64,000 bases of DNA from Candidatus Elulimicrobiales bacterium (GTDB lineage: Bacteria > Patescibacteriota > Minisyncoccia > Phycocordibacterales > UBA5272), in assembly GCA_034927475.1 (NCBI GenBank), contig JAYFPW010000002.1, positions 45,372-109,371 on the forward strand, read 5' to 3'. This document shows positions 5,923 to 41,873 of this stretch, in pieces; positions within the stretch are counted from its first letter, which is position 1, and each line of letters opens with the position of its first letter. Both the position numbers and the translations under genes were made by a program. The notes beneath the pieces are model-generated. The model searched no databases, had not been told where the DNA came from, and saw nothing but the letters and a program-made list of their open reading frames with translations.

Positions 5923-6654
5923 TTACTTGTTAATAAAATTAATAGCAACCTCTCCAGGATTAGAGCTTATTTGGTCAAAAGGAAATAGTCTAAAGACCGC
6001 TTTTCCGGAAATATCTTTTTTATAAACTACACCCCAGCTTCTAGAGTCGTAGCTCTCAGCTCTATTATCTCCAAGTACTAAATATTCTCCGTCTTGTAAA
6101 ATTATATTTATATTTTTTACATTATCTTTAAATCTTACAAAACTTTCATCCAAAATCACTCCGTTAGGATTTTTTGTATCATAAATAATAGTTACACCGT
6201 TTTCTATAACAATTTTGTCTCCCGGTAAACCAATTAATCTTTTTATAAAAAATTTTCCATTATACTGATCATTTTTTGAATGTCTAAAAACTATAACATC
6301 ACCACGTTTTAAATTGTCTATATCGAAAGTGATTTTATCTATAAGTAAAAGTTCTCCAGATTTTAAATTTGGAAGCATAGAACCTCCATCCACAAGAAAA
6401 GGTTGAATTACAAAACCTTGTATTAATTTAATAATTATAAGAATTGAAACTAAAAGAGCTAAAAGTTTTCCAGGGGACTCATCTTTTTCTAGAAGTTTAA
6501 GTTTGACTAAAGCTTTTCTAGTGCTTTTTGAAAAAGTCGCAATCAAAAGAAGCAGAAGGAAAATAAAAATGATTATAGAGAGTAGTAGACTGTACGGATT
6601 TCCTAGTAGATCATTTATAAAATTATTTATTAAATCGTTGAAGTTACTACTCAT
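5923..6654 (-). CDS. lepB: signal peptidase I
   Basis: N-terminal TM helix, catalytic Ser box GGSMLPNL, Lys box VFRHS...KRLIGLPGD, and C-terminal GDNRAESYDSRSWG. Confidence 0.85.
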   Translation of the reverse strand: MSSNFNDLINNFINDLLGNPYSLLLSIIIFIFLLLLLIATFSKSTRKALVKLKLLEKDESPGKLLALLVSILIIIKLIQGFVIQPFLVDGGSMLPNLKSGELLLIDKITFDIDNLKRGDVIVFRHSKNDQYNGKFFIKRLIGLPGDKIVIENGVTIIYDTKNPNGVILDESFVRFKDNVKNINIILQDGEYLVLGDNRAESYDSRSWGVVYKKDISGKAVFRLFPFDQISSNPGEVAINFINK

Positions 6655-6715: not shown

Positions 6716-7279
6716 TTGATCGTGACCGAATCAAATTCAAATAAAATTAAATATTTAATTTTCCCTTTAGGAAATCCTGGAGAAAAATACAGTAAAACTC
6801 GACACAATGCTGGACGAATTCTTTTGTCTTTTTTAAAAAAAGAGGAAAGCTTTAAGAAAATACTAGAAGAAAATGATATTGAAATTTTTATTCCTGATGG
6901 GTATATGAATGAATCTGGAAAATACTTAAAAAAATATATAAAAAATAAAAATTATAAAACTGAAAATATTATAGTCTTATACGATGATAAAGATTTAGAA
7001 ATCGGTGATATTCGTTTAGCGAAAGATAGGGGAGACGGAGGACATAATGGCTTAAAAAATATTATAGAAAATTTAGGTACAAAAGATTTTTCGAGAATTC
7101 GTATTGGTATTGCTCCAAAAGGTACAGGGAAAAATAGTTTAATACCTCCTCATGGCGACATAGTTCAAAAATATGTCTTAGCCAAAATGCCGAAAGAAGA
7201 AATAGAAATTTTAGCTAGTAAAAAAGTTTTAGAAAGAGCGATTTTCTTTTTAGAAGAAATTATAAAAGATAAAAAATAA
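6716..7279 (+). CDS. pth: peptidyl-tRNA hydrolase
   Basis: LGNPGEKYSKTRHNAG N-terminal signature and RIRIGI...G motif. Length 187 aa. Confidence 0.85.
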   Translation: MIVTESNSNKIKYLIFPLGNPGEKYSKTRHNAGRILLSFLKKEESFKKILEENDIEIFIPDGYMNESGKYLKKYIKNKNYKTENIIVLYDDKDLEIGDIRLAKDRGDGGHNGLKNIIENLGTKDFSRIRIGIAPKGTGKNSLIPPHGDIVQKYVLAKMPKEEIEILASKKVLERAIFFLEEIIKDKK

Positions 7280-9219: not shown

Positions 9220-10323
9220 TTACTCTTCTGGCGATTCATCGTCGCTAGATTCTTCATGGGTTGGTGCAAAATCTAAACCTCCACCTTCAAGATTTTTACG
9301 AATTTGTTTTTCTAAATCTTTGGTTATTTTCGGATTTTCTTTTAAGAAAGTCCTGGCAGCGTCATAGCCTCTACCAAGCTTTTCTTCTCCATAACTATAA
9401 GAAGCTCCAGCTTTGGAAACAAGTTTAAACTTTTCTCCGAGAGCTAAAAGCTCTCCTTCGTGAGAAATACCTTCACCGTACATAATATCGAATTCTGTAG
9501 ATTTGAATGGTGCTGCCACTTTATTTTTAACAACTTTCACTCTAGTTCTAGCTCCTAAAACATCTTCTCCTTTTTTAATTTGAGCAATTCTTCTAATATC
9601 TAAACGAACAGAAGAATAGAATTTCAAAGCTTTTCCTCCTGGAGTAGTTTCTGGATTACCAAACATTATTCCAATTTGCATTCTAATTTGATTGATAAAA
9701 ACAATAACTGTTTTTGATTTATGAGCAATCGCTGTCAATTTACGAAGAGCTTGACTCATAAGGCGAGCTTGGCGACCAACATGAGCTTGAGACATATCTC
9801 CTTCAATTTCAGCTTGAGGAGTAAGAGCGGCTACAGAGTCGATAACAACCACGTCAATTTTTCCACTGCGCACTAGAGTTTCCGCAATGTCGAGAGCTTG
9901 CTCACCATTGTCTGGCTGGGAAATAAGAAGTTCATTTATTTTTATTCCTAATTTTCTAGCATATTCTGGATCCATTGCATGTTCTGCGTCAATAAAAGCA
10001 CAAGTTCCTCCCATTTTCTGAGCTTCGGCGATGACATGTAAAGTCAAAGTAGTTTTACCAGAAGATTCTGGTCCAAAAATTTCAACAATTCTCCCTCTAG
10101 GGAGTCCACCAACACCAAGCGCAAAGTCTAAACCAATAGATCCTGTCGGTACAGCTCCCACATCTACTTTTGGTGTCTCTCCAAGCTTCATAATCGCTCC
10201 TTCCCCAAATTTATGTTGAATTTCTTTTAGAAGTTCATCCGCGCTAGCCGCTTTAGAGTCAGAGTCTTTTTTAGTAACTTTTTTAACTGTTGCTTTTTTA
10301 GCAACTTTTTTCTTTGTAGCCAT
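9220..10323 (-). CDS. recA: recombinase RecA with a lysine-rich N-terminal extension
   Basis: Walker [11 protein letters not shown], the conserved RecA core, and a ~30-aa N-terminal K/A-rich tail [19 protein letters not shown]. Confidence 0.93.
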
Positions 10324-10366
10324 ATTTATATTTATTTGTTAATACTTGGATTATAGCATAGAGATT

Positions 10367-10753
10367 TTACTCTTTGCCAACTTGAAGAATTACACTTTTT
10401 TCTTTATTGTATTTATCTATAGCGTGTATTACAACCAAAGTGTAAGGTTCTTTTGAGATTAATTCTTCTTCAAAATCTCCTTTTTCGTTTATACTTATTT
10501 CTCTGCCATTTAAATAAATATTTCTAGCGTTTTTTACATTACCATGTATAAAAAAAGTTTCTCCAGAAATAGTCTCATAAGGCAAGGGTGATAAGATTTC
10601 TATTTTTGGACCAGTAAAATAGTTAAAAATCTTAAAAGAAAAATAAACTAAAATAAAAGCTAATAATAGGAAAAATGCCCAAGTTTTTAATTTGTCCCTA
10701 AAAGGTCGATAATATTTATTTCTACTCTTCTTCATTTTCTTCTGTGTCACCAT
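10367..10753 (-). CDS. hypothetical small membrane-anchored protein
   Basis: Basic N-terminus followed by one TM helix (WAFFLLLAFILVYF). No recognisable family. Overlaps the ftsK 3' end by 32 nt. Confidence 0.35.
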   Translation of the reverse strand: MVTQKKMKKSRNKYYRPFRDKLKTWAFFLLLAFILVYFSFKIFNYFTGPKIEILSPLPYETISGETFFIHGNVKNARNIYLNGREISINEKGDFEEELISKEPYTLVVIHAIDKYNKEKSVILQVGKE

Positions 10754-13238
10754 CTTCTAATTCCTCTAGTTCTCTTTCTAATTTTTCCACTTCGCTTTCT
10801 GTATTTTTTCCAAATAAGACTTCTCTATGTCTTCCACTGACAGCTGGACCAATAATGCCATAAGCTTCTAAGTCATTCATTATTCTTGCGGATTTATTAT
10901 AACCCCAACGGAAAGCTGTTTGAAGGGCACTGGTAGAAGCTTTTCCTGTAGAGATGACATAGTCGCGAGCAGACATATAGTCTTCATCATCTTCAGGCTC
11001 TTCGTTTGGATTTCTTTCATTTGAACTCTCCATTTCTCTATAACCAGCTGAAGCTGAAGAAGAAATTTTTACTTTTTGAATATCAATACTATCTGGAAGA
11101 AAATCTTCATATTGTTTTTTAATATAAGCGATAACAGATTTAATTTCTTCACTAGAAACAAAAGGCGCTTGAACACGAGTGATACTTGAGCCATTCATAT
11201 AAAGCATATCTCCATTTCCAAGCAAATCTTCCGCTCCAGCTTGATCGAGAATTGTTCTAGAGTCTATTTGAGAAGTAGTTTTAAGAGCAATTCTTGAAGG
11301 AATATTTGCTTTGATAGTACCAGTGATAACTTTCACATCTGGTCTTTGAGTGGTCAAAATAAGATGAATACCAGCAGCACGAGCTTTTTGGGTGAGAGAG
11401 GTGATGACCGGAGTAATTTCTTTTGGATAAGTGAGCATAAAGTCATTAAACTCGTCAAAGACAATTACCACAAAAGGCATTTTTGGTGGAAGACCTTTCA
11501 CATATTCTCCTTCACTACTTTTCTTTTTAGCTTTTTCTAAAGCAGGGAAGAATATTTTTTTATTGTATTCAGTAATATTTGGCATGCCGTATTCTCCAAG
11601 TACATCGTATCTTCTATCCATTTCTTGAGCAGCCCAACTGAGAGACTTAATCGCAGTCTTCGCATCTTTAATAATAGGAGTATAGAGGTGAGGTAGAGAA
11701 TTATAGGCTGTAAATTCTACTCTTTTTGGATCTAAAATAATAAGTTTTAAATCATGAGGTGAATTTTTATAAAGTAAAGAAATAATTAAATTGTGCAAAG
11801 TAACAGATTTTCCTGTACCAGTTGCTCCAGCGACAAGCAGGTGTGGCATTTTTGAAAGATCAGAAATGACAGGTTTACCAATAATATTTTTACCAATAGC
11901 TAAAGCCAGTGGCGGAGCATCTTGGAATTCGTCTAATTCTAAAAGACTACGAAGCCCAAGCAAAGTTTTCTTTTCGTTTGGAATACCGATACCCACAAAT
12001 GGTTTTCCAGGAATAGGAGCTTCGATATGCATATTGGTTGCCGAAAGCGCCATTTGAAGATTATCTTTTAATCCTAAAATTTTTCTAACATTTACACCTT
12101 GAGCTGGTTTTAAAGTGAATTGAGTAACCGACGGTCCAACTGTAACTTCTCCCATTTCTACAGGGATATTAAACTGATTTAAAACTTTTTGAATAATATT
12201 CATTTTAAATTTAGAATCTCCAGCCGAAGATTTTCCTTGATCAGGATTAAGCAAACTTAAATCTGGCATTTCAAAAGTTTCTTCAATAAAGACAGGTTTA
12301 CTTTCTTCTAAAATACTTTGTCTTCTTTCTTCGCCGGATTTCTGTTTCACTTTTTGCAACTCAGCATTTTCATTTTCAAAATGAGGAGTTTCTGTGTCAT
12401 CTATATGATGCAACTCTTCTTCTTTACTGTTTTCAAAATTATTCATCATTTCTAAATGTAAATCGGAAACTTTATATATTTCAGAATCTGCTTTTTCTAA
12501 ATCTTCTAAAGTTTTTCTCTGAGCTTTTTGTTTAGCTATTTCATCTGTGAGCCATCTGAAAGAGAAAATATAAACTAGAAAAGAGATAAGCTTTTTGAAA
12601 AAAGTTTTTATCGCAGACCAAATAGGCTTCCAAATATTTTTTCTCTCTACTTTTTTCTCCTCAAGAGGATTACTACTATAGTCTAGAGACAAGGTCGGAG
12701 CTTTTTCATTTGAAGAAGTATTTTCTGTTTGAGTTTCTATTCCAGTATTTTTATTTCTTAATTTTAGACTAGGTTTATCTTGATAGAGAATAACAAAAGC
12801 GATTAGACCTAAAGCAAAAGATAAAATAGCTGGCAAAATATTTCCAAAATTGCTTTTTAAGAATTCTGCTAAATAATTTCCAACCACACCAGAATTTTCT
12901 AAACCAAGTGAAGCTGTAAAAGTTGTTATAGAAAAAATAATAAGTAACAAAGCTAGAATCGAAACAAAATCTGGACGGCTGTCATTTCTGTCCGTCCAAA
13001 AATTATAAGCCACCCAAAAGAATCCGAGGAAGACAATATAAGCTACCCAGCCAAGCACAAGCTTCAAAGCTCCAAAAATACTTTCTCCAACTTGTCCTCC
13101 AGCATGGAAAGAAGAAAGTAAAGCTATAGCACCTAAAATAAAAAAGATTAAAGCGGTAACTGTACTTTTAATTAATTTTCCTCTTTTTTCATCGACAGAG
13201 TTTTTTGCAACATTTTTTTTCTTGTTTTCTTTTGACAT
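10722..13238 (-). CDS. ftsK: DNA translocase FtsK/SpoIIIE
   Basis: N-terminal polytopic membrane domain, Walker A AGATGTGKSV, Walker B IVFDEFNDF, and a C-terminal winged-helix gamma domain (ARDYVISTGKASTSALQTAFRWGYNKSARIMNDLEAYGII). Confidence 0.9.
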   Translation of the reverse strand: MSKENKKKNVAKNSVDEKRGKLIKSTVTALIFFILGAIALLSSFHAGGQVGESIFGALKLVLGWVAYIVFLGFFWVAYNFWTDRNDSRPDFVSILALLLIIFSITTFTASLGLENSGVVGNYLAEFLKSNFGNILPAILSFALGLIAFVILYQDKPSLKLRNKNTGIETQTENTSSNEKAPTLSLDYSSNPLEEKKVERKNIWKPIWSAIKTFFKKLISFLVYIFSFRWLTDEIAKQKAQRKTLEDLEKADSEIYKVSDLHLEMMNNFENSKEEELHHIDDTETPHFENENAELQKVKQKSGEERRQSILEESKPVFIEETFEMPDLSLLNPDQGKSSAGDSKFKMNIIQKVLNQFNIPVEMGEVTVGPSVTQFTLKPAQGVNVRKILGLKDNLQMALSATNMHIEAPIPGKPFVGIGIPNEKKTLLGLRSLLELDEFQDAPPLALAIGKNIIGKPVISDLSKMPHLLVAGATGTGKSVTLHNLIISLLYKNSPHDLKLIILDPKRVEFTAYNSLPHLYTPIIKDAKTAIKSLSWAAQEMDRRYDVLGEYGMPNITEYNKKIFFPALEKAKKKSSEGEYVKGLPPKMPFVVIVFDEFNDFMLTYPKEITPVITSLTQKARAAGIHLILTTQRPDVKVITGTIKANIPSRIALKTTSQIDSRTILDQAGAEDLLGNGDMLYMNGSSITRVQAPFVSSEEIKSVIAYIKKQYEDFLPDSIDIQKVKISSSASAGYREMESSNERNPNEEPEDDEDYMSARDYVISTGKASTSALQTAFRWGYNKSARIMNDLEAYGIIGPAVSGRHREVLFGKNTESEVEKLERELEELEDGDTEENEEE

Positions 13239-13299
13239 AAATAATAAATAAGCAGAAGCTTTTCTTCATTAAAATTATAGCATGTGGAAAACTTTTTAA

Positions 13300-13520
13300 T
13301 TTTTAAAGGACAAAATTTATAAAAGACAGAGAAAGCATATTTTATAAAGGACAAAATGTAAAAAATAAGAAATGTCCTTTATAAATAAAAGACAAATTAT
13401 AAAAGACATCTCTAAAGATAATAGCTTAAAAAATAAGAGAATAAAAAATTATAAAGGACATTTAATATTTTAAATTTATAAAAGACACAGATAAAAATTT
13501 TTATAAAAGACATATAAAAT
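13300..13520. repeat. array of ~9 copies of an 11-mer, T(T)ATAAAGGACA / TATAAAAGACA (one inverted), in an AT-rich intergenic region at a strand switch
   Basis: Direct reading shows copies at about 13309, 13324, 13347, 13371-85 (inverted), 13388, 13400, 13450, 13478 and 13501. At least 5 further copies lie inside the downstream gene (14140-14360). Confidence 0.7.
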
Positions 13521-13622
13521 AGCATTTAAAAATAAACTTGATATTTTCATAAAAAAAGTATAGTATTTGAATAAAGAATTTAATTGTGGGAGTTAACAGG
13601 AAAATTAATCTAAAAGACAAAT

Positions 13623-14489
13623 ATGAATACCGTGCCCCCAAACTACAATTTATTAATTGCTAAAAAGACAGAAAAAATTGTCACAGCGATTTATCTCATT
13701 TCTCAATTTCTAAAGGACACAGAATCTCTTAAACATGAATTAAGAAAAGAATCTAATAATTTACTCAGAGCTTTAAGCTTGCTTGCTTATGGAGACCACA
13801 AAGATGTTTTTCCTATTTATAAAGGATCATTGGATTCAGTTTCACTTTTAATTTCCTATTTAACTATTGCAAAAGAAAGTAATTTAATTTCTCGTATGAA
13901 TGTAGAAATTGTCATCGAAGCTTTAAGGGTTTTAGAAAATCTTTTGGTTAAAAAACAGTTTAATTTAAGAAGGGAAAATCTTTTTATCAATGAAGAAAAT
14001 TTTTTAATATCATTACTCGATACAAAAGATGAGGTTTCTATTAATACAAATACTTCTTATGATGTGTTAACTGGAAGAAATATTGTTGAAGAAAATTTTT
14101 CTAATCAAACAAAAACTGAGAACAATAAAAATATTTCTATAAAGGACAAAATTTCTAAAGGACAAAATTTAAATATAAAGGACAAAACTATAGAGAAAGA
14201 AGCTGATAAAACAAAGACAGTTATAAAGGACACTTTTAAACCTTCTTCAATAAAACCAGAACCTAAAGCTAAAAAATCTGCTCAAAATAAAGAGAGAAAA
14301 AACAATAGAAGAGAGCAAATACTAGCTTTATTTAGCAAAGGAGTAGAAGTTTCTATAAAGGACATTTCTAAAAAAATCGTAGGCTGCTCTGTGAAAACTA
14401 TTCAAAGAGAATTAAATGATTTAGTCTCAGAAAATAAAATCGAAAGAATAGGGGACAAAAGATGGAGTAAATATACTCTCGTTAAGTAA
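13623..14489 (+). CDS. DNA-binding protein with a C-terminal winged-helix (DeoR/MarR-like) HTH and a K/D-rich repeat linker
   Basis: C-terminal ...EVSIKDISKKIVGCSVKTIQRELNDLVSENKIERIG has an HTH/wing pattern. The central low-complexity IKDK repeats are encoded by the same ATAAAGGACA word that is reiterated upstream. Confidence 0.5.
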   Translation: MNTVPPNYNLLIAKKTEKIVTAIYLISQFLKDTESLKHELRKESNNLLRALSLLAYGDHKDVFPIYKGSLDSVSLLISYLTIAKESNLISRMNVEIVIEALRVLENLLVKKQFNLRRENLFINEENFLISLLDTKDEVSINTNTSYDVLTGRNIVEENFSNQTKTENNKNISIKDKISKGQNLNIKDKTIEKEADKTKTVIKDTFKPSSIKPEPKAKKSAQNKERKNNRREQILALFSKGVEVSIKDISKKIVGCSVKTIQRELNDLVSENKIERIGDKRWSKYTLVK

Positions 14490-14899
14490 ATTAATTTCTT
14501 AACATTCTTAACTAAACCATTGATTTTTATAATTAATATTTTAATTCTGAAAAAAATATGCTATATTTGTAACTAGACGACCTGTCTCTGGTGAGGGCGT
14601 CCTCTGGTATTTGAGATACATTTATAAGTAATTATAGGTATCACAAAAGACTAGATCGATCGTTGGCAATAGAATATAGACGCAGATTAGAAAATTTATT
14701 AGTTAATTATTAGTTAATATTAACCCTAATAAGTGTTTAGATTCAGTCGCAATTTTTATTATCTTACGAATGTAAAAATTAAAACAGCGATGGGTCTCGT
14801 TAGTAGTTAATGAAATATTTGCTTGTCGAAGCGAATAAAAAATATTTTGTTGACTATGATCTCTATAAGATCAAAAGTTATAAATTTTTATAAAAAGTT

Positions 14900-18329: not shown

Positions 18330-18809
18330 TTAATCTTCTTCCGGGTTACCTTTCATTGTTGTAAAAAACTTAACATCTCTATATTTGTTAGTTGTCCAAG
18401 CAGGGACTACACTCCAAAAATGAATATTCCCATTATCTCCTATTTTTCTCAATATTACTTTTATTTTTCTGCCATCAATTATAGCTATAATTCCCCAATA
18501 TTTTATTGAACGAGTGATAAAAGTTTTCTTTTTGTATTTTTTAGCAGATATGGTAGAAATGGTTTCTTCATATTCTTGATAGGTTGTAGATTTTTTAACC
18601 AATTTTATAGCTAAAGGAAGAAGTTTAAATCTAAGAATTTGAGAAGATCTTTCTCTTTCACTTCTTCCTTTTTTAAAAATTATATGATTAAATCCTTCAG
18701 AATTAAAACTTATCTCTGTTTCTAGAGCTGGAGAGAAGATTTTTCCCGTGGAACTATAAAAGTCCTGGGAGTCTTTTTTTAATTTTTCATAATTAGATAG
18801 ATCATTCAT
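18330..18809 (-). CDS. hypothetical protein (159 aa), basic, no confidently recognised family
   Basis: Intact ORF with its own terminator. C-terminal segment KVILRKIGDNGNIHFWSVVPAWTTNKYRD. Could not be assigned from sequence alone. Confidence 0.4.
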   Translation of the reverse strand: MNDLSNYEKLKKDSQDFYSSTGKIFSPALETEISFNSEGFNHIIFKKGRSERERSSQILRFKLLPLAIKLVKKSTTYQEYEETISTISAKKYKKKTFITRSIKYWGIIAIIDGRKIKVILRKIGDNGNIHFWSVVPAWTTNKYRDVKFFTTMKGNPEED

Positions 18810-21589: not shown

Positions 21590-24500
21590 TTTCCTGATAG
21601 GAAATATAAGAGCATAAGGTGGATGCCTTGGTTCAAGAAAGCGATGAAAGACGTGATCAGGCTGCGATAAGTTTCGGGGAGGTGCCTAATAACCTTCGAT
21701 CCGGAAATTTCTGAATGAGGAAACTCTCCTGAAGTAATGTTCAGGAATCTAGGGAGCATATCTTTAGAGGCAAACCTGGGGAAGTAAAACATTCTAGTAC
21801 CCAGAGGAAAAGAAAACAAAGTTTATTCCGCAAGTAGCGGCGAGCGAAAACGGAGGAGCCCAAATTCTTTGTAGTAATACAAAGTTGGTTGTAGGCTTGA
21901 GATGTAGAATTATCTAGAGGAGTTACAAAAGTTGATTATAGGTTAAGCTATTGGAAAGTAGCACCACAGAGGGTGATAGTCCCGTAATCGAAATCTTCAA
22001 CTCTCTTTTATCTCTTGTCCTGAGTAGTTCGAGACACGAATAGCTCGGATGAATCTGCCGGAACTAACCGGTAAGGCTAAATATTTCTTGAGACCGATAG
22101 TGAACTAGTACCGCGAGGGAAAGGTGAAAAGAACCCTGGAAAGGGAGTGAAATAGAACTGAAACCTTATGTTTACAAAGAGTAGGAGAGGACTTGTTCCT
22201 CGACTGCGTGCCTATTGAAGAATGAGCCAACGAGTCTTATTATCCAGCCGGCTAAGCAGCATAAAGTTGTGGAGCCACAAGCGAAAGCGAGTGTTAATAG
22301 CGCGAAATAAAGGTTGAGTAATAAGGACCCGAAGCCGGATGAGCTACCCATGAGCAGGGTGAAGCTTGTCGAAAGACAAGTGGAGGCCCGAACCAATAAG
22401 TTGTGCGACTCTTTTGGATGACTTGTGGGTTGGAGTGAAAAGCTAATCGAATTCGGTAATAGCTGGTTCTCGTCGAAATATTTTTTGGAATAGCGTCAGG
22501 TGGTCCCTTTGGGGGTAGAGCACTGGAAGGTCTTGACTAGTGGAAACACGGCAATACCTATCAAACTCCGAATACCAAAGATTATCAGCCTGGCAGTCAG
22601 ACTCCGGGGGCGAAGCTCCGGTGGTCTAAAGGGAAACAGCCCAGATCTAAAATTAAGGTCCCTAAGTATATGCTAAGTGTAAGCAAGGATGTGAAGTTTC
22701 ATTGACAATGAGGATGTTGGCTTAGAAGCAGCCATCATTGAAAGAAAGCGTAACAGCTCACCCATCGAGAGACTCTGCGCCGCAGATGATCGGGACTCAA
22801 GCATATCACCGAAGTTTAGGGATTGTATGTTCGCATACAATCGGTAGACGAGTGTTCCACTCTGCGTTGAAGCGAAAGGGGTGACCCATCGTGGAGCGTG
22901 TGGAAGTAAGAATGTTGGCACAAGTAACCGCAATGGAGGTGAGATCCCTCCACGCCGAAAGAATAAGGTTTCCTTCGCAATGATTGTCAGCGAAGGGTTA
23001 GTCGAGCCTAAGGGGATGGCAATGCGCCGGACCCGATGGACATAAGGTTAATATTCCTTAACTTGGTATAAATGTGATGGAATGACGCATTGTTGTACTC
23101 TATGCCTCTTATCAGATTGAGGTCTTTGTAATGATTAGCGAGAGCATGTAAATCAGTTCTCGAATACTGAGAGTTATGAAGCGAAGCTTGTAGCAATACT
23201 GGTGAAGATAGAGGAGCACGGTGCCGAGAAAAGTTTCTACATCTACTGAATAGTAGATATTGTCTTGTGAATAATGTTTCTAGTCATCTATGAAATATTA
23301 TTCACAAATGTGACAATACTTAAGTTTATATCAAACCGTACCGCAAACCGACACAGGTATTCAGGTCGAGTAGACCCAGGCGAACGAGTGATTTCTCCCT
23401 AAGGAACTAGGCAAAAAAGCAGCCGTAAGTTAGCAATAAGGCTTGCCTGTAGCAATACAGGCCGCAGTGAAAGTTTCTCTGGCAACTGTTTATCTAAAAC
23501 ACAGCTCCATGCGAACTCGTAAGAGTATGTATATGGGGTGACACCTGACCAATGCGGGAAGGTCAAATATCGGTGGTCACATGGTGATCTTGAAATTTAT
23601 TATTCGTAATTTATTTTGAGTTCACCATGTGGCTGACTGATATAAGCCCCCGTCAATGTCGGCGATAACTATAATCGTCCTAAGGTAGCGAAGTTCCTTG
23701 TCTGGTAAGTTCAGACGTGCACGAATGGTGTAATGACTGGGGAACTGTCTCAGGGAGTAGCTCGGTGAAAATACAGTGGCGGTGAAGATGCCGCCTACCT
23801 GCAGATAGACGAAAAGACCCCGTGAGCTTTACTCTAGCTTGGTATTGTGTTTATTAATTTGTTGCGTAGAATAGTGGTGAGACTTTGAAGTATAGATTTT
23901 GGTTTATATGGAGTCGACAGTGAAATAGCCATCTGCATCTTGGTAAACACTAACCTAAACGGAAAAAACGTTTAGAGACAGTATCTGGTGGGGAGTTTTA
24001 CTGGGGTGGTACCCTCCTAAAAGGTAACGGAGGGGTTTATTAAGGTCAGTTAGGCGCGAATGGAAACCGTGCCGATAGTGTAATGGCATAAACTGGCTTG
24101 ACTGTAAGACGGGCATGTCGAGCAGATACGAAAGTAGAACATAGTGAACCGACAATTCGCATTAGATGCGGTTGAAGATTAACGGATAGAAGCTACCACG
24201 GGGATAACAGGCTAGTTCCACCTAAGCGTCCATAGCGACGGTGGAGTTCGGCACCTCGATGTCGGCTCATCTTATCCTGGGGGTGAAGAAGCTCCCAAGG
24301 GTATGGCTGTTCGCCATTTAAAAAGATACGCGAGCTGGGTTCAAACCGTCGTGAGACAGGTTGGTCTCCTATCTACTGCAGGCGCTTGAATATTGAGAAG
24401 ATTTGTCTCTAGTACGAGAGGACCGAGATGAACTGACCTCTGGTGTGTGGGCTCTGACGCTAGTTGGATCGCCCAGTAGCCAAGTCGGGAATGGATAAGT

Positions 24501-24645
24501 TCTGAAAGCATCTAAGAACGAAGCCAACTTCAAGATAAGTATTCTATGAGGGTCGTAAGAGATGATTACGTTGATAGGATCTAAGTGTAAGTACAGTAAT
24601 GTACTCAGCTGAGGATTACTAATAACCCGATTCTTATCAGGAAAT
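21590..24645 (+). rRNA. rrl: 23S ribosomal RNA (approximate ends, ~3.05 kb including AT-rich expansion segments)
   Basis: 5' aagagcataaGGTGGATGCCTTGG...GATGAAaGACGTG. Internal conserved blocks include GTACCGCAAACCGACACAGGT, GGATAACAGGCT and ACGAGAGGACCG. 3' GAAAGCATCTAAG... Terminal helix cctgatagg/cttatcagg. Confidence 0.9.
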
Positions 24646-24909
24646 ATATTTATCATGTTTTTACAGACTTAACTCTTGTATCCTAAAAATTATTTTTGAT
24701 TGATTTTTAATTAATTTTCTTTAATTTTTAGGATTCAGGAGTTAAAAAGCCACGTCGGTGTGCTTAATATCTAGTTAACAATTCTTAAGATTAATAGAAA
24801 AATTCTATCAAAATTTTTCTTTAATTTTAACTTGCGTTGGCGATTTAACGACATTAAGCATCCGACGATCTAATACAGGATTCTAAACTCAAATCAAAAG
24901 ATTTGAGTA

Positions 24910-25028
24910 TTCTGTTCTCCCGATTCAGATGAAGGGTAACACACCATCCCATTTCGAACTGGATCGTGAAGACTTCACTCAGCGATGGTAGCGTCCGCGC
25001 AAGAGTAGCTTTTCGGGAGAACAGAGTA
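24910..25028 (+). rRNA. rrf: 5S ribosomal RNA
   Basis: Terminal helix tctgttctcccg/cgggagaacaga, with an internal ...CCCATTTCGAACTGG...GTAGCGTCCGCGCAAGAGTAG pattern ~265 nt after the 23S. Confidence 0.8.
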
Positions 25029-25097: not shown

Positions 25098-25123
25098 ATT
25101 TTGTGAAATCAAATTTTTATGAT
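25095..25123 (+). promoter_or_regulatory. promoter TTGATT-17-TATGAT for rplJ-rplL
   Basis: Hexamers with a 17-nt spacer, overlapping the T-run of the 5S terminator. Confidence 0.5.
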
Positions 25124-25223
25124 ATATTTATATTCGTAAACCAAAGAAGTGAGTGAGCAAATATAGCTCTTAAAATACAAACTCACGGAGGTCGAACTTA
25201 GGCATTTTGCCAGTGTTTACCTT

Positions 25224-25260
25224 AAATCTCTCTAATCTCTTTGGTTGAGAGATTTTTGTT
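25224..25260 (+). promoter_or_regulatory. leader hairpin plus U-tract (putative attenuator) in the rplJ leader
   Basis: aaatctctc-N14-gagagattt followed by ttgttt, located ~100 nt before the rplJ ATG. Confidence 0.4.
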
Positions 25261-25277
25261 TATAAAAATAAAAATAT

Positions 25278-39912: not shown

Positions 39913-40539
39913 ATGTCATTTTTAGAAAATTTAAATTGGAGATACGCTACAAAAAAATTTGATACCACTAAAAAAATAAGTGAAGAAAATTTACAAAAAA
40001 TAAGAGAAGCTATTAGACTAGCTCCTGCCAGTATGGGGTTGCAACTTTATAAAATTCTTGAAGTTACAAATGGGGAAGTTAGAGAAAAAATGAGAGCTGC
40101 TTCAAATAATCAACCTCAAGTCACCGATGCCGATAGAGTTTTTGTATTTTTGGCAAGTATTGATGGAGAAAATAGAGTAGAAGAGATGTTTACTGAAATG
40201 AGTGGTGGAAATGCTGAAGTTAGAGAAAACAATCTAAAAGGCTATGAGGATATGGTTCGGGGATTTGCACTTTCTAAGAGCCACGACAATCTTTTAGCTT
40301 GGTCCCAGAAAAATCTTGGTATAGCTCTCGGATTTGCTTTAGCTGCTTGTGCAGAATTAAAAATAGATGCTTGTCCAATGGATGGATTTGACCCTCTACA
40401 AATTAAAGAAATCTTAGGAGCTGGTGAAAACTTTTTCCCAGTTGCTTATTTAGCAGTTGGCTATAGAGATGAGAGTGATGAGACTAGTTCTCGTCCAAAA
40501 TGGAGGCTTCCTCTTGATAAAACAATTCAAAAAATCTAA
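39913..40539 (+). CDS. NAD(P)H nitroreductase family protein (NfsB/FRase I-like), paralog 1
   Basis: N-terminal FLENLNWRYATKKFD, RxA PASMGLQ region and C-terminal ...GY. Length 208 aa. Confidence 0.8.
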   Translation: MSFLENLNWRYATKKFDTTKKISEENLQKIREAIRLAPASMGLQLYKILEVTNGEVREKMRAASNNQPQVTDADRVFVFLASIDGENRVEEMFTEMSGGNAEVRENNLKGYEDMVRGFALSKSHDNLLAWSQKNLGIALGFALAACAELKIDACPMDGFDPLQIKEILGAGENFFPVAYLAVGYRDESDETSSRPKWRLPLDKTIQKI

Positions 40540-41240: not shown

Positions 41241-41873
41241 ATGTCATTTTTAGAAAATTTAAATTGGAGATACGCTACTAAAAGATTTGATACAACTAAA
41301 AAAGTTAAAGAAGAAGATGTGAAGAAGATTCGTGAAGCTATTCGTATGACTCCTACTAGTCTCGGAGTACAAATGTTCCATGTCGTAGAAGTTGTGAGTC
41401 AAGATTTAAAAGATAAATTGAGAGCCATTTCTTTCGATCAAGAGCAAATGTCTACCGCGGATAGGATTTTTGTCTTTTGTGCTAGAAAAGATTTAGCGGA
41501 TAGAACAGAAGAAATGTTTATGGATATGACAAATAATGACGAAGAGTTTAGAAAAAACGATAAAGACATTTCTCAGTATGAAAAATCAGTTAAATTCTTT
41601 GCGGGGCAATTGGGTGCTGACAGAATTCCAGAATGGTCTGCCAGGGAAGCCCATATTGTCTTGGGATTTGCTCTCGCAGCCTGTGCAGAATTAAAAATAG
41701 ACTCTTGCCCAGTTGGTGGATTTGATCCAGTCAAAGCTAAAGAGATTTTAAATATGGATTTAGACTTTATGCCAGTTGTGTGTTTGCCAATTGGTTATAG
41801 AGATGAGACAGATGAACATCTCAAGTTTAAAAAATGGAGATTTCCGGAAGACAAAATCTTTGAAAAAATGTAA
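41241..41873 (+). CDS. NAD(P)H nitroreductase family protein, paralog 2
   Basis: The first 16 residues (MSFLENLNWRYATK(K/R)FD) are almost identical to paralog 1, with the same fold signature throughout. Confidence 0.8.
   Translation: MSFLENLNWRYATKRFDTTKKVKEEDVKKIREAIRMTPTSLGVQMFHVVEVVSQDLKDKLRAISFDQEQMSTADRIFVFCARKDLADRTEEMFMDMTNNDEEFRKNDKDISQYEKSVKFFAGQLGADRIPEWSAREAHIVLGFALAACAELKIDSCPVGGFDPVKAKEILNMDLDFMPVVCLPIGYRDETDEHLKFKKWRFPEDKIFEKM

Follow-up and report, generated by a model that had tools for sequence, protein, structure and literature searches.

A direct-repeat array and a winged-helix protein gene beside ftsK–recA in Patescibacteria: a candidate multi-site operator

We analysed a 64,000-nucleotide stretch of DNA (the window) from a Candidatus Elulimicrobiales bacterium (Patescibacteriota; contig JAYFPW010000002.1) and focused on region 13239–14489, which comprises the spacer between ftsK and an open reading frame for a 288-residue protein, ORF288, followed by ORF288 itself. 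This region carries a dense array of the word TAAARGACA. Across the window there are 19 exact matches compared to 2.86 ± 1.69 expected from dinucleotide-preserving shuffles (maximum 8), and 16 of the 19 fall within 1.06 kb (13304–14364); elsewhere in the window the word occurs only at chance density. AAARGACA was also the top enriched word in an unguided 8-mer count. The array proposed in a first-pass annotation of this DNA, made from the letters and their open reading frames, is therefore real, and the 11-mer given there agrees with our extended consensus, tATAAARGACA. Full site words include TATAAAGGACA and TATAAAAGACA, with the core GGACA. The features of the region are as follows.

13304–13512, plus strand: upstream array of nine TAAARGACA copies (exact matches, shuffle control, repeat families and same-place arrays in homologous loci)
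13304, 13320, 13345, 13386, 13400, 13452, 13479 and 13504, plus strand: starts of the direct upstream copies
13373–13381, minus relative to the array: the inverted upstream copy
13611–13619, plus strand: copy in the 5' untranslated region (UTR), 4–12 nucleotides before the ATG
13623–14489, plus strand: ORF288, 288 residues
13644–13958, plus strand: ORF288 N-terminal four-helix bundle, residues 8–112
13663–13671, plus strand: weaker, motif-like variant AAAAAGACA, codons K14-K15-T16 of a conserved AKKTEK peptide
13711–13719, plus strand: copy in the N-domain coding part, peptide FLKD (L002, one of the related loci, designated by L numbers throughout, carries one too)
14067–14276, plus strand: ORF288 disordered linker, residues ~149–218
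14140–14232, plus strand: linker-coding cluster with copies at 14140 (IKD), 14156 (SKGQ, in another frame), 14176 (IKD) and 14224 (IKD)
~14212, plus strand: weaker variant AAAGACA within the linker-coding cluster
14274–14480, plus strand: ORF288 C-terminal winged helix-turn-helix, residues 218–286
14356–14364, plus strand: copy in the winged-helix coding part, peptide SIKDI (present in L002 and L007, absent from L001)

Start-to-start spacing in the upstream array is irregular, at 14–52 bp, and the G+C (GC) content of the array region is 27–28% against about 30% for the genome, a contrast that does not discriminate for or against an AT-rich DNA-unwinding element. An Rfam search returned no family at the array. 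The first-pass annotation had counted nine intergenic copies, one of them inverted; the inverted copy stands, and the count rises to ten (nine direct, one inverted). It had also described at least five copies inside the reading frame that encode I-K-D. We found six (13711, 14140, 14156, 14176, 14224 and 14356), but the copy at 14156 is read as S-K-G-Q, so that the word is used in two frames. A copy close to the start codon recurs in relatives at shifting positions: −11 in the window, +6 in L001, −17 in L002, and −10 and −21 in L007.

ORF288 belongs to a family of 2,960 clusters at E ≤ 1e-10 (clusters of ~50% identity) from Patescibacteria whose function is uncharacterised, and we found no description of the family or of the motif in the searchable literature. 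The C-terminal winged helix noticed in the first-pass annotation is borne out by an AlphaFold2 model (predicted local distance difference test score 70–84) and by weak Pfam matches below threshold. One of these is HTH_DeoR, which aligns to residues 229–276 with 16.8 bits against a cut-off of 21 (E = 6e-4 to 6e-3); the NCBIfam GlpR and DeoR models match the helix-turn-helix only and lie far under their cut-offs, HTH_36 is likewise weak and below threshold, and KfrA_N was matched in 3 of 37 family members. The DeoR-type C-terminal effector-binding domain is absent, the remainder of the protein consisting of the four-helix bundle and the disordered linker. A Pfam search gave no significant Rep, CtsR or response-regulator match; Pfam, the model and fold comparison revealed no AAA+ or Rep-like domain, and Pfam and the model no S24 self-cleaving peptidase domain. 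Among the closest structural neighbours of the winged helix are winged helices that bind RNA, such as SelB and Z-alpha. Within the winged helix, the recognition-helix segment KTIQRELN is invariant.

The N-terminal domain model has the four-helix-bundle fold of Avd and the 23S rRNA intervening-sequence proteins (PF05635, bAvd; PDB 2rld, 2gsc, 4dwl and 8ub7_B). PF05635 matched 4 of the 37 members (best E = 0.02) and PF22296 matched one (E = 0.009), all below threshold, and a PDB sequence search with the family profile gave no match. Membership of the Avd family is thus supported by fold rather than by sequence, and unlike in Avd the bundle is fused here to a linker and a winged helix, with no retroelement nearby. 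The Avd-like fold, which in the Avd family goes with homopentameric assembly, suggests that the N-terminal domain probably oligomerises.

To determine how widely the gene and its repeats occur together, we compared related loci. Homologue loci at 42–75% identity keep both the motif array and the gene order, in which the minus strand carries recA, a Glucodextran_B-like gene and ftsK, and the plus strand the ORF288 homologue, a surface protein of about 1,000 residues and L10–L12. A DNA-pattern scan of species-representative genomes (ATAAARGACA-N(3-33)-ATAAARGACA), which also gave chance hits outside Patescibacteria and serves for examples and not for counts, yielded at least 16 further homologous loci at 24–34% identity, several of them labelled Saccharibacteria, with the same synteny, co-oriented copies and two clusters. 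Because loci found in this way are ascertained through the motif itself, a second sample of 80 metagenome loci was drawn by two winged-helix peptide patterns alone (26–71% identity) and put to the same test. In these, the density of AARGACA per kb was 6.9 over the 0.5 kb upstream of the gene, 9.8 over the linker-coding part and 2.65 over the part encoding the N-terminal domain, compared to 0.44 across the other 567 kb, a value that we estimate to be about that expected from base composition. Enrichment upstream and in the linker-coding part was therefore 16- to 22-fold over elsewhere. At least two co-oriented upstream copies were present in 62 of 73 loci and at least one linker copy in 63 of 80, and co-oriented copies outnumbered inverted ones by 408 to 59 (87% gene-directed). 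Plotted from codon 14, copies were most frequent at −210 to −60 and again at +390 to +660, and dipped over the folded N-terminal domain in between. Spacing between copies was 9–23 bp in other loci and 9–52 bp overall.

The surroundings of the gene are equally constant. ftsK was the divergent left neighbour in all 55 informative loci, with recA following on the same strand in 38, and the right neighbour of the homologue was always a large PG_binding surface protein. The gene and its sites are found together beside ftsK–recA in every relative sampled across Patescibacteria. In the Southlakia transposon-sequencing tables this synteny is not kept (dnaA lies at 1, ftsK at 96 kb, and recA and L10 elsewhere), and a homologue was not identified there.

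The linker is otherwise hypervariable; its only near-invariant columns are islands of KGQ and IKD, both spelled by a single DNA word, in one frame as T AAA GGA CA and in the other as ATA AAG GAC A. L001 has YKGQ and YKRQ where the window has IKD, and L098 has an inverted motif copy within the coding sequence. The dipeptide K-D was encoded as AAG-GAC in 44 of 98 cases (45%) in homologues against 11 of 190 (6%) in neighbouring genes of the same loci (p = 6e-15); among five loci chosen by protein similarity the proportions were 7/24 and 2/85 (p = 3e-4). Nearer the start of the gene, the 30-bp bin that holds the AKKTEK codons contained 42 co-oriented copies over 65 loci, so that most loci carry one, and the motif-like word there needs the rarer AAG and ACA codons. 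Use of two reading frames together with rare codons indicates that the DNA itself is under selection in these coding-sequence copies, and the KGQ and IKD residues of the linker appear to be by-products of sites for the protein that contains them.

The array lies between two divergent transcription units, whose putative control elements are listed here with the neighbouring genes concerned.

13538–13566, plus strand: promoter-like TTGATA-17-TAGTAT for ORF288, between array and gene (promoter scan; the block is conserved in L001 and L002)
13274–13282, minus strand: putative extended −10 element TGCTATAAT for the divergent operon (assigned by eye; conserved in L001; absent from the promoter-scan hits)
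13283–13291, minus strand: DnaA-box-like word TTTTCCACA, the only one at the locus
9220–13238, minus strand: divergent operon ftsK-X-recA (ftsK, 10722–13238; small Glucodextran_B-like gene, 10367–10753; recA, 9220–10323)
6716–7279, plus strand: pth, an exception within the minus-strand block

Read on the minus strand, the TGCTATAAT element is preceded by the first motif copy at a distance of about 22 bp. In many lineages the −10 box of the ORF288 homologue is fused to the motif core (TATAATGGACA), and the same lineages have more copies in the 5' UTR and over the start codon, which is a classic autorepressor layout. In the lineage of the window the upstream array has grown to nine copies, placed upstream of the TTGATA-17-TAGTAT promoter.

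We conclude, with a probability of roughly 60%, that the array is a cluster of binding sites for the neighbouring ORF288 protein and serves as a multi-site operator for its autoregulation. The comparative evidence favours this possibility, which the first-pass annotation had raised as an operator array for an unusual regulator. ORF288 is the likely binder because its gene is invariably adjacent to the array, because the motif core and KTIQRELN show matching invariance, and because the word falls to chance level elsewhere in the window. The protein probably also controls the divergent ftsK-X-recA operon, since the spacer is common to both transcription units in all 55 informative loci.

How such an operator might work is suggested by the predicted architecture of the protein. 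The Avd-like bundle would drive oligomerisation, and each C-terminal winged helix, carried on a flexible linker of about 70 residues, would read one 9–11-bp tATAAARGACA site in monomer-like fashion. Variable spacing points to independent winged-helix units tethered to an oligomeric N-terminal domain, and an oligomer with long linkers would tolerate the irregular 9–52 bp between sites. A multi-site complex could then build over the region shared by the protein's own promoter and that of ftsK-X-recA, and the second cluster, about 500 bp downstream in the linker-coding part of the gene, might add looping or a roadblock. The outcome would be autoregulation, most likely repression. An arrangement of five sites per cluster, one for each arm of a pentamer, was ruled out by cluster sizes of 1–7, and a general promoter element (TATAAA plus GACA) by the chance density of the word away from the locus.

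Several observations weigh against an autoregulatory operator. The pairing of protein and motif is drawn from adjacency and co-conservation, and the upstream copies in the lineage of the window lie mostly upstream of the predicted promoter and not over it. A regulator of nothing but itself would be pointless, and with only chance density in the flanks no regulon can be defined. GC skew at four-fold degenerate sites is ambiguous, with the left block and the plus-strand genes farther left both looking leading. Lastly, the cca gene and the surroundings of yraN or tRNA genes in Patescibacteria also hold clusters of 2–4 motif copies; these come from the motif-ascertained scan, and all statements about them hold among the matches listed.

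Within cca, three motif copies lie just after the sequence encoding the RDFTINA motif, in codons for KG(H/Q), YKGQ and IKDK. Three copies were present in the cca genes of L018, L022, L030, L037, L040, L045, L056, L073, L080, L081, L083, L094, L107 and others; L022 was found through a different site and its cca nevertheless has all three, whereas the cca genes of L035 and L062 have none. The cca copies may reflect DNA-level selection or a second target. Intergenic sites of 2–4 copies, often near-palindromic (for example TGTCCTTTATAAAAGACA), lie by yraN (UPF0102), sometimes near cca or xth, at the following positions.

L022, 3325–3489: yraN-adjacent site
L035, 2567–2603: yraN-adjacent site
L062, 6147–6176: yraN-adjacent site
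L097, 3193–3226: yraN-adjacent site
L107, ~6000–6022: yraN-adjacent site

Four of these five sites are 100–170 bp downstream of a tRNA gene, and that in L062 is about 50 bp upstream of one. The cca and yraN/tRNA sites hint at a small regulon or a second function. In L022 and L077 one or two perfect DnaA boxes (TGTGGATAA) stand beside motif sites; with so few boxes and no dnaA nearby, we did not take these as evidence of an origin.

The first-pass annotation had read the locus as having the geometry of a replication origin or a partition site, at the only large-scale strand switch in the window. On the origin reading, a divergent DnaA, or ORF288 in the role of initiator or regulator of the origin, would bind the repeats as initiator boxes peculiar to the lineage, and the two-cluster layout would find a parallel in the DnaA-box clusters on either side of dnaA in Firmicutes. 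The array is AT-rich (27% GC) and intergenic at a divergent gene pair, its sites form two clusters with one DnaA-like box at 13283, and the cumulative GC-skew minimum of the window does fall there. However, a contig from the same population (99.97% identical, 3 mismatches in 11,132 bases) that extends the window 9.8 kb to the left shows both switch and minimum to be local. Beyond trxB the genes are again on the plus strand for about 8 kb, and the skew is positive again 1–10 kb left of the window (+0.13 to +0.24 at −1.8 to −9.8 kb), so that the V at 13.4 kb pairs with an inverted V near −1.8 kb to delimit a 14-kb minus-strand island. Skew tracks the coding strand, with similar coding-strand values for genes of either orientation. 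The minus-to-plus switch hence holds within the window (with the exceptions of pth and an open reading frame at 18330–18809) but not on a large scale. Four-fold-site skews gave −0.21 ± 0.06 for the left minus-strand genes, closer to the leading (−0.18) than the lagging (−0.39) value, as an origin would predict, but −0.06 for the far-left plus-strand genes, where −0.39 would be expected if they were lagging. We set aside the contradictory third-codon and four-fold-site skews and used comparative gene orientation instead. In 32 loci with long flanks, DNA more than 4.6 kb to the left was mostly plus-oriented (52 kb plus, 28 kb minus), like the right flank (150 kb plus, 3.9 kb minus; 97% plus); in most relatives the minus strand carries only ftsK-X-recA, some 4–5 kb within plus-oriented DNA, and L007 has plus-oriented adk and map on the left. 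Given the strong co-orientation in these genomes, the simplest reading is that replication passes through the locus. The array word is not a DnaA box, as had been said from the outset, and the relaxed box TTWTNCACA occurs 11 times in the 64 kb against 8.8 expected, once at the locus and nowhere in the window as a cluster. A regular-expression scan found no dnaA signature in the window, and tblastn with an approximate B. subtilis DnaA query found no dnaA in the window, the 9.8-kb extension, 131 loci or another 80 related loci that have flanks of up to 8 kb. ORF288 itself has neither an AAA+ nor a Rep-like domain. The array is most likely not a chromosomal replication origin, and an origin of the kind described is highly improbable.

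A centromere-like or chromosome-organising complex, in which ORF288 covers the array in the manner of ParR on parC or TubR on tubC and regulates its own gene only incidentally, the complex itself acting in segregation or division, possibly with the FtsK translocase encoded next door, would account for the many co-oriented direct repeats just upstream of a small winged-helix protein gene, for sites far more numerous than simple autoregulation needs, for the invariant link to ftsK and the probable oligomerisation of the N-terminal domain, and for the chance motif density in the window and the 567 kb of flanks, where no regulon was seen. We nonetheless consider it unlikely: none of the loci has a ParA, ParM or TubZ-type motor gene alongside, which leaves the partition geometry proposed earlier unsupported too, one copy lies on the −10 box in many lineages as befits a transcriptional role, and smaller motif clusters occur at other loci (among the matches listed). 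Slightly less probable is that a different regulator such as the Patescibacteria LexA, which is reported to bind a direct repeat, uses the array as an SOS-type operator for ftsK-X-recA, with ORF288 as a mere neighbour or a regulon member. The presence of recA in the divergent operon and the proximity of some other motif sites to yraN and xth (among the matches listed) speak for it, and Sanchez-Osuna et al. 2017 is cited in PMC7739468 among cases of LexA evolving recognition of direct repeats. The 9–52 bp spacing, though, is unlike that of a dimer of fixed geometry, the densest clusters lie over the ORF288 promoter and in its coding sequence and not at ftsK, and a G[DN]SM scan found no lexA in the window or related loci. 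The sites could also act in RNA, as UAAARGACA copies bound on the mRNA by ORF288 or another factor in translational autoregulation or mRNA stability, a role consistent with the 87% co-orientation, with the placement of copies in leader and coding region in most lineages and with the RNA-binding SelB and Z-alpha among the structural neighbours of the winged helix. This is very unlikely given that inverted copies and near-palindromic pairs such as TGTCCTTTATAAAGGACA occur, that one copy overlaps the −10 box, and that the lineage of the window has eight or nine of its copies ahead of the predicted promoter and by the divergent one.

In its proposed action the operator has parallels in three kinds of known system: winged-helix proteins that regulate themselves through direct repeats, looping between several operators, and centromere adaptors (ParR, TubR). 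CtsR on its heptad repeats and PhoB/OmpR on their boxes likewise place a winged helix on short direct repeats at the regulator's own promoter, but here the domain order is reversed, with the bundle N-terminal and the winged helix C-terminal, and there are up to 16 irregularly spaced sites with a second cluster in the gene's own coding sequence. The CtsR repeat, GGTCAAA, is one base from the heptad GGACAAA, a likeness that we regard as a lead only. DeoR (O1/O2/OE) and lac (lacO2 in lacZ) also have operators several hundred bp apart, one of them intragenic, whereas the intragenic operators here are numerous and lie in the regulator's own gene; the ORF288 helix-turn-helix is weakly DeoR-like but C-terminal and below the Pfam threshold, and the DeoR effector domain is missing, so that it does not qualify as a DeoR-family protein.

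Partition and replication systems share other traits. In parC/ParR of R1 and tubC/TubR of pBtoxis, direct-repeat arrays of ~10–12 bp lie upstream of an adaptor gene, TubR is itself a winged-helix protein, and cooperative coating by ParR or TubR also autoregulates. The array upstream of a small DNA-binding protein gene is common to both, but the present locus is chromosomal, lies among core genes, has no adjacent ParA, ParM or TubZ, and extends its sites into coding sequence. Iteron/Rep origins and the RctB 11/12-mers of Vibrio chromosome 2 similarly combine direct repeats and an inverted copy with a winged-helix protein gene. Here, in contrast, the repeats are 9–11 bp and irregular instead of 17–22 bp in helical phase, ORF288 has a single winged helix and not the tandem WH1-WH2 fold of Rep, no DnaA-box cluster is present, and the locus is fixed among core chromosomal genes across the phylum. 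The box clusters flanking dnaA in the oriC of Bacillus, Helicobacter and Mollicutes are again two clusters of irregular 9-mers around the start of the adjacent gene, and these too serve autoregulation; in the window, however, the adjacent gene encodes a protein other than DnaA, and the repeated word differs from a DnaA box. The strand context seen in relatives also tells against an origin; skew and strand inflect only locally in the DNA compared, and there is neither a DnaA-box cluster in the window nor a dnaA in the regions searched for it.

Other features of the neighbourhood are recorded here in their own right. In L007, a distant relative, the spacer between ftsK and the homologue holds an inverted repeat at 9630–9760 with arms of ~30 bp (AGAAACCTAGGCTATTGGGATTTTAAAAC and its reverse complement), possibly a small mobile element, possibly a hairpin with a regulatory role. 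To the right of ORF288, a spacer of ~330 nucleotides (14572–14899, plus strand) that leads to the gene for a 1007-residue surface protein is far more conserved than the flanking genes: a 44-nucleotide core has the same sequence in L002, L008 and L132, and L009 and L134 depart from it at a single base. This spacer folds well (z = −5.4), with compensatory changes at 16 of 96 predicted base pairs; it matches no Rfam family, its conservation is confined to the clade of the window, and we regard it as a candidate for a structured 5' leader or a non-coding RNA. Ahead of it, a possible promoter at 14497–14570 consists of a TTCTTAAC-A-TTCTTAAC direct repeat and a −10-like box, TGCTATATT. A 159-residue open reading frame with a weak LPD3 match (18330–18809, minus strand), between the surface-protein gene and an M23 peptidase gene, is missing from the otherwise syntenic L002 and is probably a recent insertion. 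Farther right are the 23S rRNA gene (3,047 nucleotides against a 2,925-nucleotide model, suggesting insertions) and the 5S rRNA gene, together at 21595–25022, and an L10 leader at 25123–25267; a 16S gene is found nowhere in the window. Two paralogous genes for proteins of ~210 residues (39913–40539 and 41241–41873), with near-identical N-termini (MSFLENLNWRYATK...) and nitroreductase-like by eye, flank an open reading frame for a 214-residue secreted protein with a CPWC motif, thioredoxin-like by eye. A gene for a TraG/VirD4-like coupling protein lies on the plus-strand side, to the left of the minus-strand block, both in the genome of the window (L130, 12949–14682, ~1.8–3.5 kb left of the window start) and in the distant relative L007 (1153–3873). 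Such a gene is in keeping with the type IV secretion system that has been described as a conserved feature of Patescibacteria.

Patescibacteria, the candidate phyla radiation, make up a large share of bacterial diversity, and to our knowledge almost nothing is known of how they regulate their genes. For the calling of origins in these genomes, the locus is a caution that strand switches and GC-skew Vs in limited windows are not a sufficient basis. Our results pair a very large uncharacterised protein family with a specific DNA word and a fixed address beside ftsK–recA, a hypothesis that can be addressed without culturing the organisms. The proposed module consists of a regulator and its operators, with an unusual domain architecture and an operator cluster placed in the codons of the regulator's own disordered linker, giving that coding sequence a second layer of information. 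It is a more speculative, and on balance doubtful, idea that ORF288 and its array form a Patescibacteria-specific master module and not merely an autoregulator. If so, the oligomeric winged-helix protein would form a large complex at a fixed address beside ftsK–recA, and selection would have placed its recognition word in its own linker codons and in the cca gene of many lineages. A DNA code common to the phylum would thereby be linked to FtsK and RecA, and so to chromosome handling or the cell cycle, with the module serving either as an anchor or centromere-like site or at the centre of a small conserved regulon.

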